A stretch of 50,092 nucleotides of DNA from Ramlibacter sp. (GTDB lineage: Bacteria; Pseudomonadota; Gammaproteobacteria; Burkholderiales; Burkholderiaceae_C), in NCBI GenBank assembly GCA_036263715.1, contig DATAGN010000056.1, positions 1 through 50,092 on the forward strand, written 5' to 3'. The notes beneath the pieces were generated by a model. The model ran no database searches. It was not told the origin of the DNA and saw only the letters and a program-made list of their open reading frames with translations. Shown in pieces: positions 16,306 to 27,957 of the stretch; the first letter of the stretch is position 1; every line of letters begins with the position of its first letter. The position numbers were made by a program, and so were the translations under genes.

Positions 16306-16340
16306 AAGCAACATGCCCCCGCGAGGGGGCATGCTGCTTT
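16306..16340. terminator. Hairpin between convergent genes (probable bidirectional terminator)
   Basis: AAGCA-A-CATGCCCCC-GCGA-GGGGGCATG-C-TGCTT stem with GNRA loop. Confidence 0.7.
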
Positions 16341-16356: not shown

Positions 16357-16929
16357 TCAGACGACCATGCGCGGCACGGGGGAAGTCGGCGCCTGGTCCT
16401 GCGGCGCTTGCTGGGGCCGTTGCGGGACGGCGGGGCGCTTCGGAGCGGTATCGCGTGGCAGCACCCGCTGCGCCGAGTAGCCGGGGTCAGCGTCGCGGGC
16501 GGCTGCATTGCCGGTGTTGGCGGGTCGCGAGACCACCACGTCGCCACCTTCGCGCCCTTCCTTCAGGCGCTCGGCGTGTTCGAGCACCTCCTGCATCTTG
16601 CTGCTCCAGGGCACGCGGTGCAACCGCGCCTGCGCGCCGGACCGGCGCGAGATGACCATCACGTCGATCCAGCGCTTCTTGCCGTCGGCCACCACGGTGC
16701 TGTGCGCGATGTACTGGAACGATTCGGGCAGTTCGGCGGGCCAGCCATACCCCAGGCGCGTCCCCACGGCAGGAACGGCAACCGCGCAGGCGGCCAGCAG
16801 CGCCGGGCCGAGCAGCAGCTTTAGGCGAAAGTGGCGTGCCGTGGTATAGAACACGTACAGCACCAGCACGGCCAGCAGCAGCAGCGCCGCGACCGCCGGA
16901 AACAGCAGGTGGAATTGTTCGCTGAGCAT
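16357..16929 (-). CDS. Hypothetical membrane protein (2 TM + soluble domain + Pro/Gln-rich tail); third gene of the motor-like triad
   Basis: ATG 2 nt after the previous stop; two hydrophobic helices, then LGYGWPAELPESFQYI...WIDVMV...ARLHRVPWS. Confidence 0.8.
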   Translation of the reverse strand: MLSEQFHLLFPAVAALLLLAVLVLYVFYTTARHFRLKLLLGPALLAACAVAVPAVGTRLGYGWPAELPESFQYIAHSTVVADGKKRWIDVMVISRRSGAQARLHRVPWSSKMQEVLEHAERLKEGREGGDVVVSRPANTGNAAARDADPGYSAQRVLPRDTAPKRPAVPQRPQQAPQDQAPTSPVPRMVV

Positions 16930-16931
16930 CC

Positions 16932-17591
16932 TCACGTTCCCTGGCGGACCGAACCGCCCGTATCGCCCAGGATGGGCACGTCGCATTGCAGGTCGACCTG
17001 CGACACCGCGCCGGAAGCCTCCACGTCGAAGCAGAAGGCCGTGCGCTGGCTGCCGATGCGCCCCAGGGACAGGGTGCGATCGGCGACTTCGACCAGCTGG
17101 GGGTTGAGCTTGGTGAGCTTCACGCGCACGGGGTCCGGCGTCGCCGCAAGCTCCCGCATGCCGATCTCGTTCTCGTCGTAGTGGTGGTAGTAGTGCACAT
17201 TCACGACGTAGCGACCGGGCACGATGGCGCGCACCACGGTCGTCTCCTTGTTGATCGAGATCAGCTTGGCTTCGCCCTGGACGCCGGCATAGAGGTCACC
17301 AAAGCCGCCCCGGTCGTCTCGGTCGAGCGTCGCGACGCCCGCGTCCTTGGCGGCATAGCTCACCTTGCGGCCGTCCGGCAGCATCAGCCACAGGTCCAGG
17401 TCCGCAAAGCTCTGGTCCGCCCAGGTCAGCTCGAGCACCAGTTCGGCCTTGAGCTCCGCGGACCTGGCCTGCGCAGGAGGGTTCATCTGCACCAGCGCGA
17501 TCGCCGAGACCACCACGAACAGCATCAGCAGGTTCAGCAGGAGGTCGATGGCGGCGATCGCGTTCGCCTTGTCGCTGCCGTTACTGCTCAT
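16932..17591 (-). CDS. Single-TM protein with ExbD/TolR/MotB-like Asp-bearing helix and YfaP/DUF2135-like soluble domain
   Basis: AAIDLLLNLLMLFVVV helix (Asp16); LTW...DLDLWLMLPDG...LDRDD...PGRYVVNVHYY; overlaps the upstream gene by 11 nt. Confidence 0.8.
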   Translation of the reverse strand: MSSNGSDKANAIAAIDLLLNLLMLFVVVSAIALVQMNPPAQARSAELKAELVLELTWADQSFADLDLWLMLPDGRKVSYAAKDAGVATLDRDDRGGFGDLYAGVQGEAKLISINKETTVVRAIVPGRYVVNVHYYHHYDENEIGMRELAATPDPVRVKLTKLNPQLVEVADRTLSLGRIGSQRTAFCFDVEASGAVSQVDLQCDVPILGDTGGSVRQGT

Positions 17592-18051
17592 GGCGCGCTG
17601 CCAGGTTCAGGTTGATCACCTGCAGCTTCAGGCCCACGGCGCCGACCAAGCCCACCAGCGTGTTCACCAGCGCGGTGGCGGAACCGGCCGTGAGGCTGCT
17701 GATTGCGCGCCGCGCCACCGTCACGTCGGCGCCGGCGAGCGAGGAAAAGGACGTGGTCAGCAGCTCCATGAAGCCGATGACGGTGCCGATCAGGCCCAGC
17801 ATCGTCATCAGCGTCACGGCGTAGTCGTAGCCTTCCTGGTAGCGCAGGTGCCAGGTGAGGTCGCCGCGGCCCACGCGCCGCGTGAGCCGGCCGACGAAGA
17901 CGGTCACCACGAAATACGTGGTCAAGGTGATGAAGCTCACCTTGTAGGCATCGACGCGCCACATCGCTCCCAGATGGTCCGTGACAGCGGCGATGGCCAA
18001 GCCAGCGACGCTGCACAGAAACACGAGCCACCATCGCAGGTTCGCAACCAT
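17581..18051 (-). CDS. Compact MotA/TolQ/ExbB proton-channel family protein
   Basis: LGLIGTVIGF and GSATALVNTLVGL channel-helix signatures; GGAGG RBS. Confidence 0.88.
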   Translation of the reverse strand: MVANLRWWLVFLCSVAGLAIAAVTDHLGAMWRVDAYKVSFITLTTYFVVTVFVGRLTRRVGRGDLTWHLRYQEGYDYAVTLMTMLGLIGTVIGFMELLTTSFSSLAGADVTVARRAISSLTAGSATALVNTLVGLVGAVGLKLQVINLNLAARHEQ

Positions 18052-18067
18052 GTCGTGATCCTCCGGG

Positions 18068-19085: not shown

Positions 19086-19325
19086 ATGGATACCTCATGG
19101 ACCGAAGCGGCCGCCAGCGGCCGCCAGTACGAGCTCCGATTCGCGGGGCTGTACAACATGGGCCGCGGCTACGCGTTCCCGTGCGACCCGCAGGGCAACG
19201 TGGACGTGGCGATGCTCAGCGAGCGCGCCCGGGCGAACTACCTGCGAGCGCGGGCTGCCGTGGGTCGTGACTTCTTTCCTCCGGTGATGTGCGCCTGCGC
19301 GGCCGGCGGAGATCTCCATGCGTGA
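19086..19325 (+). CDS. Conserved hypothetical small protein (YELRF..L...GRGYAFPCD motif)
   Basis: AGGAG RBS; globular-protein-like composition; overlaps the next gene by 8 nt. Confidence 0.75.
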   Translation: MDTSWTEAAASGRQYELRFAGLYNMGRGYAFPCDPQGNVDVAMLSERARANYLRARAAVGRDFFPPVMCACAAGGDLHA

Positions 19326-19815
19326 AGACCTGGTGTTGCACACCCCCGAGCTGTCCGGCGGCAGGCGCGCTTCGGCGCCGCGCTCGCCGCTTCGAGTGCC
19401 CACCCTGCTGCAGTCGGCGCAGGCGGCCCAGTACTGCACCATGGAGCAGGCCTTCGCCGCCACCGGCGGTATCGTGGCCTCCGAGGAGATGGTGGGGAGG
19501 CTGCGGCGGCGCACGGACCAGCCGATCTCCCGGCTGGCACGCTGGATCGTGGACCGCGAGGTGCTCAGCTTCCAATGGCACGGGCACACGATGCTGCCGA
19601 TGTTCCAGTTCGACCCGCACAGCCTGGCTCCCTACGCGGAATTCACCACCGCGCTGCGCGAACTGGTGCCGGCCTTGAGCGACTGGGAGATCGCCGTGTG
19701 GTTCGCCACCCCGAACGTCTGGCTCGAAGAGCGGTCCCCGGTGGACGCGATCCTTTCGGATGCAGCGGCGGTGTTCGATGCGGCGCTGGCCGAGCGTTTC
19801 CTGGCCCGGGGCTGA
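19318..19815 (+). CDS. Hypothetical protein with Xre/MbcA/ParS-like C-terminal motif
   Basis: LPMFQFD...WEIAVWFATPNVWLEERSPVDAI resembles the W...PN..L....P motif of the MbcA/ParS/DUF2384 C-terminus; GGAG RBS. Confidence 0.72.
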   Translation: MREDLVLHTPELSGGRRASAPRSPLRVPTLLQSAQAAQYCTMEQAFAATGGIVASEEMVGRLRRRTDQPISRLARWIVDREVLSFQWHGHTMLPMFQFDPHSLAPYAEFTTALRELVPALSDWEIAVWFATPNVWLEERSPVDAILSDAAAVFDAALAERFLARG

Positions 19816-22358: not shown

Positions 22359-25300
22359 TCAGAAGTGGTCCGGCGCCGGCCCCGCCACGGGGAGGGTGAA
22401 CTGGAACAGCATGCCCCGGGGTTGCGCCGGGCTGGCCCACAGCTTGCCGCCATGCGCGTGCACGATGGAGCGGCAGATCGACAAGCCGATGCCCAGGCCA
22501 TCGTCCTTGGTGCTGTAGAAGGGATCGAATACCCGCGCGACCTGCGCCGGCGCGATGCCAGCGCCGGAGTCGCGCACGCGCACCACGACGGAGTCAGATC
22601 CAGAGCGGTCGGTGCTGATGCACAGCTCGCGCACCGCGTCTTGCGGCGCCGCCATGGCGTCCATCGCATTCACGATCAAGTTGAGGATCACCTGCTGCAG
22701 CTGTACCCGGTCGCCAGCAACGGCAGGCAGCCCCTCGGCCAGCTCGGTGCGCACCAGCACGTTGCGCTTGGCCGCTTCGCCCTTGGTCAGCTCGAGCACC
22801 TCGCACACGGCGCCGTTGATCTCCACCTGGTCGCTGCGCGCGGGGGCCTTGCGCACCAGGGCGCGGATGCGGTCGATCACGTCGCGCGCGCGCGTGCCAT
22901 CGCGCACGATGCGCTCGAGCGCCTGCGCGGCGCCGGGCACATTCGGCGGCTCCGCCTTGAGCCTGCGCAGCGCCGTCTCCGCATTGGTGATCACGCCGAC
23001 CACCGGCTGGCTCACTTCATGCGCGATCGAGGCTGTGAGCTGCCCCAAGGTGGCCACGCGGGTTGCGTGCGCCAGTGCGGTCTCCACTTCGCGGTAGCGC
23101 CGCTCGCCTTCGCGCGCTGCCGCTTCTGCACGCTTGGTCTCGCTGAGGTCGATGACGAAGGCCAAGCCTTCGAGCCGGCGCTCGTCGAAGGCGGCCAGCC
23201 CCATCAGCACCGGCACGCGGCTGCCGTCCTTGCGCGCATACTCCTTCTCGAAAGGGGCAACGCTGCCGGCGGCCTGGACCTGCGCGGCCGTCTGCACGTC
23301 CCGCTCGCCCCAGTCCGGCGGCGACAGCGTGTCGCGGCGTACGCGCCCGGCGGCGAGGTCGGCACGGTCGTAGCCCACCATGCGCAGGAAGGCGTCGTTG
23401 GCCTCCACCAGCACCGGCACCTTGGCGGCGTCGTACGGGCTGATCTTCCAGATGTAGGTGCCGATGATGTTGGCATCCACCAGCCGGCGGATGCGTGCCT
23501 CGCGTTCGGCTACGTCCCGGTACAGCCGGGCGTTTTCCAGGGCGATGGCCGCCTGCGTGGCCAGCAGCGTGAGCACGCCAGTGCGCCCGGACATGAACAC
23601 GCCCGGGGCCAGCTGGTTCTCCAGGTACAGCACCGCACTGAGCTTGCCGCGCGCGACCAGCGGCAGGCAGAAGATCGAGCGCACCCGGTGCGTGCGCACG
23701 TAGGGGTCCGTGGCGAAGAGCGGATGGGCGATCGCGTCGTCCAGCAGCACCAGCTCGCCGGTACGCAGCACGTACAGCAGTACCGAGGTGGCCAGCGCAG
23801 CGTCCTCCACCGGCAGCTGGCACAGCTGCACGGCCACCGTCTCGCCATCGACCCGTGCCTGCGCCTCGATCAGCGGGTGCGGCTCGCCCGGCACGACCAG
23901 GAAGCCGCGCTGGGCACCGGCTTGCTGCAGCGCGGTGCGCAGCAGCGTCGCCAGCAGCCGGTCCAGCACGATCTCGCCGGACACGGTGCGCGACACCTCC
24001 AGCACCGTGGCCAAGTCCAGGTCCGCCACCGGGGTGCCGATGGTGCCGGCAGTGGACAGCGCCGGCGGGTGCTCTTCGCGCAGGCGCGGATGCAGCTGCT
24101 GCAATTGCCTCACCTTGCCGTCGGCGCCCCAGCGCAGGTAGCCGTTGCGCGCCTTGAGCAGGTGCATCGCCGCTTCGTCGGTGCAGCCCTGGCTGGTGTA
24201 GAAGCCCGCCGCAAGCTCGTGCCCGAGCGCCTCCAGGTGCACGAAGCCGCTGGCGCGGGCGGCGCGGAGGGCATCGGCGTACAGCTGGACCGCCTGGAAC
24301 TCGCGCTGTGACAGGCGCGCGATCTCCGCGCCCACCAGCGCGGCGCAGCAGGCGAAGTTGTCCGGACAGTGGCGCGCCCATTCCAGCAGCTGGCAGTGGT
24401 GCGCCTCGGCCGCCTCCAGGTGGGTCGCGCGTGCCGCAGCCGCCGCGCCGGCGCAGCAGGCGGCGTGGGCAAGGGCGCCATAGAAGCGGTAATCCACCGG
24501 TTCCATGGTGCTCAGGTTGTCCGGCAGGTACAGCTGCAGCCTGGCCTCCGCACGCAGCACCCCGTCGTGATCTCCGGCGAAGTAGCGCGCCTTCAGCTTG
24601 GTGGTCCAGTACATGAACTGCACCATCCCGGAGCGGCCAGCGTAGCGCCGCTCGATGTCGTCCTCGTCGAAGTCGGCATCGTTCAGGCTGCCAAAGCGCG
24701 GGCTCAGGCCGCGCAGCATGCGCGCCAGGGCCACGTTGGCGCGCAACAGGTCGGTGAAGGATTCGAATTTGACCGAGCGGCCGAAGGCCACCCCTTCCTC
24801 CGCCTCCCGCTGGATCAGCGCAAGCGGGTCGCCGGCGGCGAAGCGGTTGGTGCTCATGCCCTTGGCGCAGATGGTGGCGTAGTACAGGTATCCGCTGTCG
24901 CGTGCGCTGGCAAAGGCGCTGTCGATCAGGTCGCGTCCGGCCTTGTAGTGCCGAGTCCAGGGCATCACCATGTTGCCCAGCAGGAAGTACACCGCCGGGC
25001 GGAAGCGGGCCAGTCCGCGCTTGTCGACGAGCTCGCGCCCGAGCTGGCCCAGGCGGTAAGCGCCTTGGTAGTCGCCGAACAACCGGCCGGCGATGATGCC
25101 CAGACGCACGTAGGCCGCCGGCGAAGCGTCGCTGTTGCCGCTGCGCAGGATCAACCGCACGGTGCGGCAGACCAGGAGTGCGAACAGCGGTACGTTGATG
25201 AAGAAGGCCGGCACGGTGAGCTTGCTCAGAACGTCCAGCGTCGCCACGGCGTCCCCGTCGGTCATCAGCGGCTGTGCCAGCAGCTCCTCGTGGCCGCGTC

Positions 25301-27920
25301 GGTCCAGCGCCGCGCGCGTCAGCTCGTATTCCATGCGTACTTCGGGGTCCTCTGGGTGCGCCGGCCAGTGCATGCCGAGCTCCCGCAGGAAGTCCAGACC
25401 CGCGGCGATCGCCTCGTCGCCGCGATCGAAGGTGGTGTACATGTCGATCTGCAGGCAGGCGACGCGAGAGCGCTCGACGGTATCGAGGGCGCGCGAGGGC
25501 AGGACGGCCAGCCGCTCCTCGGCTTTCGCCATCGCATCGGACAGGAAGGCGCATTCGGCGCGCTGCAGTTCCAGCCGGAACGCCAAGGCGTGCTGGCTGC
25601 TCCAGCAGCCCTCGTCCAGCAGCGCCGCGCCGGCTTCCGCGTACAGCCATGCGGCGGCGTACGCGGTCGAGGACTTGGCACGTTCGGCCGCTTCCAGGTT
25701 CAGCGCCGCCACCAGCACGCGCTCGGCCTGGTCCGTGATCAGCTGCACGCTGCGGTTGAAGTGGTTGACGATGTCGAACACCAGCTCGCCGCGCTCCTGC
25801 GGCGAGCTGTGCGCCAGCAGCAGGCGGGCCACGCGCAGGTCGTGCATCGGGCGCGCCTCGGGCGGGATGAGCGAGTAGGCCGCCTCGCGGACCCGGTCGT
25901 GCTGGAACACGTAGGTGTCACCCGTGCGCTGCACCAGCCCGGCATGCACCGCATCCCAGAGTTGCGCATGCACCTGGTGGACCGGCGCCTCGCAGACCTT
26001 GGCCAGCAGTTCGCACGGAGCGGCATGGCCCACGCAGGCCAGTTGCTGCAGCACCGCCAGTGTGGAAGGCGGCAGGCGATTGAGCTTGACCACCATCAGG
26101 TCGACCACGTTGTCGGTGTAGCGCTTGGACGCCATGCGCGCCAGGTCCCAGCGCCAGCGCCCGCGGCCGTGGTCGAAGGCGAGCAGGCCTTCGTCCACCA
26201 GTGCATGCAGGAACTGCGCGGCAAACAGCGGATTGCCGCCCGTCTTCTCGTGCACCAGGCGGGCCAGTGGACGGGCGCGCTGGAGTCCGCAGCGCAAGGC
26301 TCCAGCGACCATCTGCGCGAGGTCCTCGCCCTGCAGCGGGGCCAGGACGATCTCGTGCACGGGCGCGCCGGCGGCTCGCACGGCCTCGATCTTGCGGCGC
26401 AGCGGGTGCAAGGGCCCGACCTCGTTGTCCCGGTAGGAGCCCACCAGCAGCAGGTGCCCACGCTGGCCGTTCGCCAGGATCTCCTGCACCAACTCCAGTG
26501 TCGCCGCGTCCAGCCATTGCAGGTCGTCCAGGAAGAGCACGAGCGGGTGGTCCGCAGTGGCGAACACCGCGAGGAAGCGCTGCACCACGGCCTGGAAGGC
26601 ACGGTGCGCGTCCTGCGCCGGCAGGCGGGGGGCAGGCGGCTGCTTGCCGATCACCAGTTCCAGCTGCGGGATGAGGTCGACCAGCAGCTGCCCCTGCGCA
26701 CCCAGTGCCTCGCGCAATGCATGCTGCCAATGCCGCAGCTGCGCCTCCTCGCGGCTCAGGAGCTGCTCCACGAGGCCCTGCAGCGCCTCGGCCAGCGTGC
26801 CGTAGGGAATCTCGCGCTTGTACTGGTCGAACTTGCCCCAGGCGAACAGGCCCCGCGCGGGCACCATCGACTTGTGCAACTCGTGCACCAGCGAGGACTT
26901 GCCTGTTCCGGAGTAGCCGGCCACCAACACCAGCGTGGGCCGGCCGCTGGCGAACACGTTCTCGAACGCCTGCAGCAGCACGGACAGTTCGGCCGACCGT
27001 CCGCACAACACCTCCGGGATCAGCAGCCGGTCCGGCAGGTCGCGGCTGCCCAGCGGCATCGCTGCGATGCAGCGCGATGCCTCCCAGTCGGCCAGGCAGC
27101 ACTGCAGGTCGTGCTCCACCCCGGCGGCGGTCTGGTAGCGTTCCTCGGCGGTCTTGGCCAGCAGCTTCAGCACGATGCGCCCCAGGATGGGCGGCAGGTC
27201 GGCAACCCGGTCCTGCGGGGGCACCGGCGAGCGTGCGACGTGGCAGTGGATCCATTCCATCGGGTCGGCCGCCGAGAACGGCAGCACGCCGGTGAGCATG
27301 CGGTAGAAGACGACGCCAAGCGCATACAGGTCGCTGCGCGAATCGATGGAGCGGTTCATGCGCCCGGTCTGTTCCGGTGCCATGTAGGGCAGGGTGCCGG
27401 CGATGAACTCGGGAGGTGCCGGCACCTGTTTTTCGCGCGGCAGCTGCGACGCCAGGCCGAGCCCCGTCAGCCGCACGCGCCCATCGCCGGCCACCAGCAG
27501 GTGCGCGGGCTTGAGGTCCTTGTGGACCAGGCCCTGCGCGTGAAGCCGCGCCAGGGTCGCCGTGATGGCGAGGGCGAGGCGCAGGAAGCGGCCGGTCTCC
27601 ATCGGCTGGCCAAGAAAGCGCTCCAGCGGCTCGCCCCCCGGATCGTCCAGCACCAGCAGGGGCCGGTCCTGGTCGTGCACCAGTTCCAGCGGCCGCACCG
27701 CCCAATCTCCGTCCAACAACTGCCGCAAACCGTATTCGTGCGCCAGCCGGTCGACGCTGGCGCGTGCCGGGCGCTCGGCTGTCAGCATCAGGGTGAGCAC
27801 CTGCCGCGCCCGGCCATCGGGGCCGGTGCGCACTCCCCGTACCAGCGCCCGGTCTGCGTCTTCCCACAAGACTTCGCGCCGCTCGTCGTGCGGGGACGTG
27901 CAGGCGATCGCAGTGTTCAT
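22359..27920 (-). CDS. Trifunctional Ser/Thr-kinase-like / AAA-ATPase / GAF / PAS / histidine kinase (1853 aa)
   Basis: HKDLKP...YMAPEQTGRMNRSIDSRSDLY; Walker A GYSGTGKS; LVLFLDDLQW; GAF (CLPL...VLYLEN); PAS (ANIIG); ASIAHEVSQP; GLGIGL. Confidence 0.95.
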   Translation of the reverse strand: MNTAIACTSPHDERREVLWEDADRALVRGVRTGPDGRARQVLTLMLTAERPARASVDRLAHEYGLRQLLDGDWAVRPLELVHDQDRPLLVLDDPGGEPLERFLGQPMETGRFLRLALAITATLARLHAQGLVHKDLKPAHLLVAGDGRVRLTGLGLASQLPREKQVPAPPEFIAGTLPYMAPEQTGRMNRSIDSRSDLYALGVVFYRMLTGVLPFSAADPMEWIHCHVARSPVPPQDRVADLPPILGRIVLKLLAKTAEERYQTAAGVEHDLQCCLADWEASRCIAAMPLGSRDLPDRLLIPEVLCGRSAELSVLLQAFENVFASGRPTLVLVAGYSGTGKSSLVHELHKSMVPARGLFAWGKFDQYKREIPYGTLAEALQGLVEQLLSREEAQLRHWQHALREALGAQGQLLVDLIPQLELVIGKQPPAPRLPAQDAHRAFQAVVQRFLAVFATADHPLVLFLDDLQWLDAATLELVQEILANGQRGHLLLVGSYRDNEVGPLHPLRRKIEAVRAAGAPVHEIVLAPLQGEDLAQMVAGALRCGLQRARPLARLVHEKTGGNPLFAAQFLHALVDEGLLAFDHGRGRWRWDLARMASKRYTDNVVDLMVVKLNRLPPSTLAVLQQLACVGHAAPCELLAKVCEAPVHQVHAQLWDAVHAGLVQRTGDTYVFQHDRVREAAYSLIPPEARPMHDLRVARLLLAHSSPQERGELVFDIVNHFNRSVQLITDQAERVLVAALNLEAAERAKSSTAYAAAWLYAEAGAALLDEGCWSSQHALAFRLELQRAECAFLSDAMAKAEERLAVLPSRALDTVERSRVACLQIDMYTTFDRGDEAIAAGLDFLRELGMHWPAHPEDPEVRMEYELTRAALDRRGHEELLAQPLMTDGDAVATLDVLSKLTVPAFFINVPLFALLVCRTVRLILRSGNSDASPAAYVRLGIIAGRLFGDYQGAYRLGQLGRELVDKRGLARFRPAVYFLLGNMVMPWTRHYKAGRDLIDSAFASARDSGYLYYATICAKGMSTNRFAAGDPLALIQREAEEGVAFGRSVKFESFTDLLRANVALARMLRGLSPRFGSLNDADFDEDDIERRYAGRSGMVQFMYWTTKLKARYFAGDHDGVLRAEARLQLYLPDNLSTMEPVDYRFYGALAHAACCAGAAAAARATHLEAAEAHHCQLLEWARHCPDNFACCAALVGAEIARLSQREFQAVQLYADALRAARASGFVHLEALGHELAAGFYTSQGCTDEAAMHLLKARNGYLRWGADGKVRQLQQLHPRLREEHPPALSTAGTIGTPVADLDLATVLEVSRTVSGEIVLDRLLATLLRTALQQAGAQRGFLVVPGEPHPLIEAQARVDGETVAVQLCQLPVEDAALATSVLLYVLRTGELVLLDDAIAHPLFATDPYVRTHRVRSIFCLPLVARGKLSAVLYLENQLAPGVFMSGRTGVLTLLATQAAIALENARLYRDVAEREARIRRLVDANIIGTYIWKISPYDAAKVPVLVEANDAFLRMVGYDRADLAAGRVRRDTLSPPDWGERDVQTAAQVQAAGSVAPFEKEYARKDGSRVPVLMGLAAFDERRLEGLAFVIDLSETKRAEAAAREGERRYREVETALAHATRVATLGQLTASIAHEVSQPVVGVITNAETALRRLKAEPPNVPGAAQALERIVRDGTRARDVIDRIRALVRKAPARSDQVEINGAVCEVLELTKGEAAKRNVLVRTELAEGLPAVAGDRVQLQQVILNLIVNAMDAMAAPQDAVRELCISTDRSGSDSVVVRVRDSGAGIAPAQVARVFDPFYSTKDDGLGIGLSICRSIVHAHGGKLWASPAQPRGMLFQFTLPVAGPAPDHF

Positions 27921-27957
27921 CGGTCGGTCAGCCGGGCGCGCTGGGCGGGAGCCGCCG

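Follow-up and report, generated by a model that had tools for sequence, protein, structure and literature searches.

A conserved three-gene unit in Ramlibacter and in phages, a probable variant of the 5:2 ion motors distinct from Mot, Ton, Tol and Zorya

Three adjoining genes, here called A, B and C (Table 1), in the window, i.e. the whole 50,092-nucleotide stretch of Ramlibacter sp. DNA analysed, form a conserved unit, probably a variant of the 5:2 ion motors, that is not a member of the Mot, Ton, Tol or Zorya systems. In this family five A-type subunits ring two B-type subunits and protons pass an Asp (PMC9389320, in its accessible part), and by analogy five A would be expected around two B here. 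Our preferred reading, with a probability of roughly 0.4, is that the A-B-C unit forms an inner-membrane ion conduit of the MotAB/ExbBD type whose predicted Ca2+-binding periplasmic B head gates or loads it, and that the present copy, with its short A, likely came from a phage. Taken separately, the ion-conducting architecture with a metal site is probable, and a role of the short form in phage exclusion, as suggested by its distribution, is rather doubtful. The trio has apparently not been described so far: no description was found in the literature covered (full text, with few subscription papers), and supplements of motor-evolution studies, which lay outside this scope, may list such loci. 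The accessible portion of PMC12505986, which distinguishes the classes FIT and GIT, does not mention TerD, and that of PMC12628762 does not mention MotA/ExbB.

Table 1. Positions of the trio and associated features in the window.
Feature	Position	Strand	Description
Gene A	17581..18051	-	156-aa MotA/TolQ/ExbB-family subunit; four hydrophobic helices, cytoplasmic domain nearly absent
Gene B	16932..17591	-	219 aa; single TM helix with Asp16, then DUF2135/YfaP/TerD-like beta-sandwich
Gene C	16357..16929	-	190 aa from ATG at 16929; two TM helices, small OB-like beta domain, conserved PK motif, non-conserved Pro/Gln tail
Asp16 codon of gene B	17544..17546	-	MotB/ExbD-type transmembrane Asp
Predicted Ca-type site of B	17244..17402	-	D64, L65, D66, D92, D93, E116, matching TerD Ca1 ligands 40, 41, 42, 78, 79, 89; E116 via YfaP alignment
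GGAGG ribosome-binding site	18060..18064	-	8 nt ahead of gene A ATG; read from sequence
9-pair hairpin, possible terminator	16312..16333	.	between converging ends of LuxR gene and gene C

The tight coupling of the three minus-strand genes that had been claimed at the outset was confirmed when the ORFs were re-read, A and B overlapping by 11 nt and B and C being separated by a 2-nt gap. Terminator-like sites numbered 3 versus 1.0 expected by chance, no sigma-70 promoter match was found, neither the window nor six loci matched an Rfam family, and the upstream DNA showed no conservation among three Ramlibacter copies. The GC3 values of the trio (0.86-0.90) are like those of the neighbouring genes. 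The 4.7-Mb genome, which is 88% complete, contains six other MotA/ExbB matches elsewhere, all with ordinary scores.

Gene A matched Pfam MotA_ExbB (PF01618) with 31.4 bits (cut-off 22.9, E 1.8e-7), in agreement with the original prediction of MotA/ExbB channel helices and a nearly absent cytoplasmic domain. The best PDB sequence matches of the A profile were MotA (E 1.1e-5), ZorA-like proteins, TolQ and ExbB, and matches to ZorA, TolQ and ExbB in NCBIfam and PADLOC were all weak. Besides D34, which lies between the first two helices and is invariant (61/61), the conserved positions comprise G86, G89 (61/61), T90 (53/61), G123, A127, T131 (60/61) and G134. Thr90 and Thr131 are located in the channel helices; the channel threonines of ExbB are Thr148 and Thr181 (available text of PMC12215075). 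The expanded cytoplasmic torque domain is absent from A, in which only 52 residues, one TM helix included, separate D34 from G86, and the cytoplasmic tail of ZorA is likewise absent from this protein of only 156 aa. These features bear on a Zorya-like defence function, in which A and B would sense phage entry and signal to an effector. The best of the weak NCBIfam/PADLOC matches of A are indeed to ZorA (E 1e-4 to 7e-4, far under the cut-off), but A has neither the tail nor any cytoplasmic part for signalling, the trio has no OmpA-like domain and is common in lytic phages, and among the 15 neighbours scanned there was no match to ZorC, ZorD or ZorE. We therefore regard this explanation as highly improbable.

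In B, the segment AAIDLLLNLL falls in a predicted helix spanning residues 6-36. The conservation expected for its Asp held among close relatives, 115 of 116 full-length homologs having Asp16, and in 133 of 144 distant representatives, the N-terminal alignment of the remaining 11 stopping short of this position. Across 64 loci Asp16 was found in 55 and the nine exceptions constitute one family, f90 (L056-L064), so that the expectation failed there and the Asp of B is not universal. In f90, Val occupies the canonical position, an Asp lies four residues earlier and Lys is found at position 20, which may mean that the ion path is altered or the channel inactive. Next to most f90 loci, in divergent orientation, lies a histidine kinase and response regulator pair.

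The structural model of B (pLDDT 90) consists of one helix and a beta-sandwich, with no long helix in the soluble part, and its top fold match was TerD (Foldseek E 4.9e-5; VIA Z 9.9, rmsd 3.8, 130 residues aligned). The Ca-binding TerD of Klebsiella scored Z 8.4 (rmsd 4.2, 136 aligned), the next row reaching 5.7. A TerD-like fold of the B head is predicted from these models; the direct profile match between B and TerD was not significant (probability 0.95%, E 0.057), with the W, DLD and DD/DN motifs in register. Neither B nor C reached the cut-off of a curated family in Pfam, NCBIfam or PADLOC. The kinship of B with YfaP/DUF2135 suggested by the original prediction was nevertheless upheld by several comparisons: B itself had no match to Pfam DUF2135 (PF09906), 8 of 59 aligned relatives matched it weakly (best E 0.0033), and an ESM Atlas structure row named DUF2135 matched B with a TM of 0.84. 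In addition, hhalign aligned the B profile with four YfaP-type domains at a probability of 99% (E 8e-18), a match that is not fully independent since all four domains, three of which pass the DUF2135 cut-off, were first found with the B profile. With fold matches to TerD and profile matches to YfaP-type domains, B is not an ordinary ExbD or TolR, as had been argued. Pfam ExbD matched one of the 59 B members (E 0.017), no OmpA-like domain was matched in Pfam among the same 59 at E 0.1, and the fold lists held no OmpA, ExbD or vWA chain, which alone excludes nothing. The Pfam results together with the small size of A also bear out the claim that the trio is devoid of OmpA, ExbD and ZorA-tail parts.

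TerD binds two Ca2+ ions, the ligands of the Ca1 site being residues 40-42, 78, 79 and 89 as quoted in the available text of PMC8779313, a secondary source citing Pan et al. (2011), and the quoted numbering fits the TerD of locus L091. We mapped Ca1 onto B by fold, by motif register and by the numbering in this secondary paper. Since the matching residues are kept in nearly all of 208 sequences (D64, D66 and D92 in 208/208, E116 in 207/208, D93 in 205/208), the B head is predicted to carry a Ca-type site. A positive-inside reading of the sequence predicts that the B head and C are periplasmic.

The three genes proved to be co-conserved, as had been expected. In profile searches 43 of 45 loci contained A, B and C together, in the order A-B-C and in a few cases interrupted by another ORF; these loci are a set of B relatives from phage records, viral contigs and genomes that includes several near-duplicates, and the two exceptions had a weak partial match (L001) or an unmatched membrane ORF after B (L032). 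Of 19 additional genomic loci (L049-L066, L071), 18 likewise had all three genes. The suggestion that similar triads occur in large tailed phages was likewise substantiated by phage records and viral contigs. Cultured carriers, represented by 29 records, include the Rhizobium and Sinorhizobium phages P10VF, RHph_N3_19, I1_18, I1_9, 16-3 and others; a tblastn search with P0003 found no cultured phage, although profiles do find them. Replication and host-takeover genes (helicase, polymerase, PhoH, exonuclease, chaperones) are the usual neighbours of the trio in the viral contigs. The B profile matched 2,138 clusters at 50% identity, 1,603 of them at E 1e-10 or better, and among the nearest Atlas clusters those with a known taxon are mostly viral. 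Tight coupling is not needed in every phage, since unrelated ORFs interrupt the trio in phage 16-3 (L089) as well as in L031, L041 and L045. In three marine viral contigs (L016, L020, L041) an SbmA/BacA peptide transporter adjoins the trio, in two of them together with Hsp70/Hsp20.

The spacing between D34 and G86 of A separates two branches. It amounts to 40-65 residues in the short form of 38 phage loci and 49-52 in that of four cellular loci, the window copy having 52, and to 83-120 in the long form of 18 cellular loci. In a draw of 400 genomes from the phylum, B was matched in 20 other genomes, of which 14 were long-A, one divergent, one phage-like and four weak YfaP-type. In Azospirillum replicons (L090) the trio is divergent and its A long, PQQ genes are absent from the neighbourhood, and its B groups with phage 16-3. 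The neighbours of long-A trios include pqqA, pqqB, pqqE, PQQ dehydrogenases, PedF, SoxH-like, SoxYZ-like and PqqU-like receptor genes and a fourth gene. This fourth gene follows C (L072:6749-7480 and L074:9172-9882, and 20 of 21 collapsed metagenome loci from the best 80 of 484 matches), encodes about 240 aa with an apparent lipoprotein-like start and a weak DUF3108-like match, and is absent from short-A loci. In the second long-A trio of genome G347 a vWA and FHA protein (L073:5639-7138) stands in its place.

These neighbourhoods suggest a different explanation, namely that all members, the phage copies included, are PMF-driven loaders of metal or cofactor for periplasmic PQQ alcohol dehydrogenases and would serve in phages as an auxiliary metabolic module. 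Among the best 80 of 484 matches, 37 of 44 long-A metagenome loci of at least 7 kb had a PQQ-related gene at a distance of up to about 6 kb, as did 17 of 21 after collapse at 90% B identity, versus 1 of 119 windows of the present genome. TIGR03075 is present in 14 of 14 long-A genomes of the phylum draw against a background of 103/400, and all ten neighbouring dehydrogenase motifs are WD[YF]D; the Asp of this motif is of the lanthanide type (bioRxiv 10.1101/2020.02.25.964783, accessible part). Furthermore, other contigs of the Ramlibacter genome itself encode a PQQ dehydrogenase and also a PqqU-like receptor. However, neither PQQ genes nor the fourth gene were found nearby in any of 40 phage loci or six short-A cellular loci, and the 88% complete genome gave no match to pqqB or pqqE. 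Moreover, the 14 long-A genomes stem from three families only, nine from f90, of which five of six loci lack PQQ genes over a distance of 8 kb, and in family f1 the TIGR03075 background is already 9/13. One sub-branch dominates the metagenome loci, since they are the best 80 of 484 matches to a single query. As an account of all members, the loader is thus unlikely. Two MotA/TolQ/ExbB genes that are down-regulated by lanthanum (MEALZ_3990/3991; PMC6277846, accessible part) were not counted as evidence on the trio.

Gene C had been described as having two TM helices, a small domain and a Pro/Gln-rich tail. The model agrees with the first two, showing two predicted TM helices followed by a domain in the order beta-beta-beta-alpha-beta-beta, but the tail, although present here, is not conserved, most homologs stopping at the PK motif near residue 165. 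An OB-like fold is predicted for the domain; the Foldseek rows were mostly OB folds (best E 0.17, not significant), and 5 of 27 C proteins weakly matched DUF4131 (ComEC). In a VIA search with C the matches were filled by the TM hairpin rather than the beta domain. One glycine is nearly invariant in the alignment of the 27 proteins, and no longer or fused form of C scored in a weak test covering 346-2000 aa. In the ESM Atlas a 297-aa phage lysozyme cluster aligned with the beta domain (TM 0.74), a hint that the C domain may meet the cell wall. A complex prediction for three A, B and C with C as partner scored 0.00, which gives no verdict and carries no weight either way.

The three-part layout, which resembles ExbBD-TonB and TolQR-A, is what would be expected of a Ton/Tol-type force transducer, in which C, acting like TolA or TonB, would pull an outer-membrane protein encoded elsewhere, such as a TonB-dependent or phage receptor. 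TonB-dependent receptors adjoin some long-A loci (L074, L077, L085, L086), and the lipoprotein-like start of the long-A fourth gene would also fit. Transducers of the TonB/TolA type have the SHLS motif and a three-domain layout (PMC12204202, available text), but C has two TM helices, no conserved Ser/His (SHLS) motif in them among the 27 aligned proteins, and a domain that follows the membrane directly, with no long linker conserved. Since the Pro/Gln tail is not conserved and SHLS is absent, the earlier suggestion that C is the transducer has become weak. Receptors were found at 3 of 21 collapsed long-A loci from the best 80 of 484 matches and at none of the short-A loci, and we consider a force transducer as improbable as the loader.

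The origin of the Ramlibacter copy was addressed with two B trees of 72 rows (18 duplicate, broken or outgroup-type loci being skipped at first and three outgroup-type ones re-added as outgroup) and 22 chosen rows. In both, the B of the window falls together with the viral contigs L011-L014 and with a small number of short-A copies from cells; the long-A clade is set apart from it with a support of 99, in quick searches with no bootstrap and no reliable root. Uniting all the cellular copies in a single clade, a grouping chosen with the first tree already known, was rejected (p-AU 0.0005). The nearest B relatives include cellular L006 and L008 and proteins of unknown context, the closest named one being that of Ramlibacter montanisoli (L006, 67%). 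Since the trees are quick and unrooted, the clade is post hoc and near relatives are partly cellular or of unknown context, the phage-to-cell direction is only likely, and the trio in this genome was likely gained from a phage. A resident prophage was rejected as a candidate, the 38 window ORFs (rough calls, some of them shadow frames) having 0 head, tail, terminase or integrase matches to PHROGs.

A phage origin raises the question of whether the trio is simply a passenger in a mobile accessory island with no current benefit. The short form was found in only 3 of 118 genomes of the genus, the window's included (the long form in 2 of 118), and the other two short-A copies, as well as L010, have frameshifts, which may reflect decay or sequencing error. 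A DksA/TraR-like zinc-finger gene of phage type (18334-18591, minus strand; phrog_54, E 6.6e-7) lies 280 nt upstream of A on the same strand; it was not found beside other short-A copies. Against this, the three frames in the window are intact, codon usage is host-like, and dN is well below dS in comparison with L006 (A, 0.153/0.615, ~0.25; B, 0.241/0.656, ~0.37), i.e. the trio is under purifying selection. In all three short-form genomes it is surrounded by the same accessory genes in shuffled order (FixJ-like and LuxR regulators, DUF4148, Xre/MbcA-like, sensor kinases), accompanied in two of them by aceE, a disulphide oxidoreductase and a large kinase fusion, and this arrangement suggests long residence. 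A mere passenger is accordingly even less likely than the loader or the transducer. Among the island genes of the window, an 1,855-aa protein (22359-27926, minus strand) combines an N-terminal Ser/Thr kinase with a C-terminal histidine kinase and has a homolog near the trio in G024. Two small genes at 19092-19815 (plus strand), one of 77 aa and unknown, the other of 165 aa with a weak Xre/MbcA match at its C-terminus, recur near the trio in G001 and G024.

Returning to the ion conduit as our preferred reading, its work would be done in the membrane or the periplasm, since A is without a cytoplasmic torque domain and B without a peptidoglycan anchor. Proton passage at Asp16 would occur only with a cation bound to the B head, C would be the fixed partner holding the conduit gated by this head, and the unit would be a conductance responsive to calcium, by which the membrane potential or the periplasmic Ca2+ level is adjusted. 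Entry of many phages requires both Ca2+ and membrane potential. For phages, as for the accessory island found here, the likeliest benefit would be an envelope conditioned against subsequent phage entry; in the long-A branch, this core and the fourth gene would likely supply metal or cofactor to PQQ dehydrogenases, both functions being suggested by distribution alone. Against the preferred reading, none of the 15 neighbours scanned matched a defence gene, generic kinase and HTH matches apart. A wider scenario, in which bacteria use a proton-driven, metal-gated 5:2 motor family with a Ca2+/lanthanide-binding head to supply PQQ dehydrogenases with metal or cofactor, phages have cut it down to a 150-residue rotor for envelope control and Ramlibacter has taken it back, is tentative and rather unlikely as a whole. 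If the preferred reading is true, the trio would extend the few known 5:2 ion motors by a branch in which a metal-binding head replaces the peptidoglycan anchor, and its A, the smallest such subunit available, would help to establish what a motor of this kind requires. The long-A branch would be a candidate route of Ca2+, lanthanides or PQQ to periplasmic dehydrogenases, and the presence of the trio in cultured Rhizobium phages makes it directly testable.

Among known systems, ExbB-ExbD-TonB and TolQ-TolR-TolA share with the trio the channel helices with two threonines, a single-TM partner bearing the Asp, a third membrane gene and the absence of a peptidoglycan-binding OmpA domain. They differ in that the trio's B has an all-beta, YfaP/TerD-like head instead of the ExbD/TolR domain, its A is without a cytoplasmic chamber and its C has two TM helices and an OB-like domain and no SHLS. 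The MotAB/PomAB stators likewise have four hydrophobic helices in A, MotA being the best PDB match, and the Asp in B. However, no flagellar genes lie near the trio, and it is without the torque-generating cytoplasmic domain and without the plug and OmpA domain, which count among the FIT traits (PMC12505986, accessible part). Similarly, ZorAB of Zorya resembles the trio in the weak ZorA matches over the channel helices and in its mobile, patchy spread, but the trio is without the ZorA tail, the OmpA-like domain of ZorB and the effectors, and is itself carried by phages. TolQ-like motors with a vWA-headed B subunit, proposed as further 5:2 motors in the available text of PMC12204202, also have a non-canonical head on an Asp-bearing transpore helix; the trio differs from them by its YfaP/TerD-like head, its dedicated third gene and its phage-borne minimal form. 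Finally, TerD and YfaP (DUF2135) share with B the predicted fold and the W, DxD, D-D/N-x-x-G and E motifs in register, whereas B is membrane-anchored, predicted to be periplasmic, carries an additional beta-hairpin that separates its DD motif from the Glu, and matches the Ca2 site of TerD only in part.
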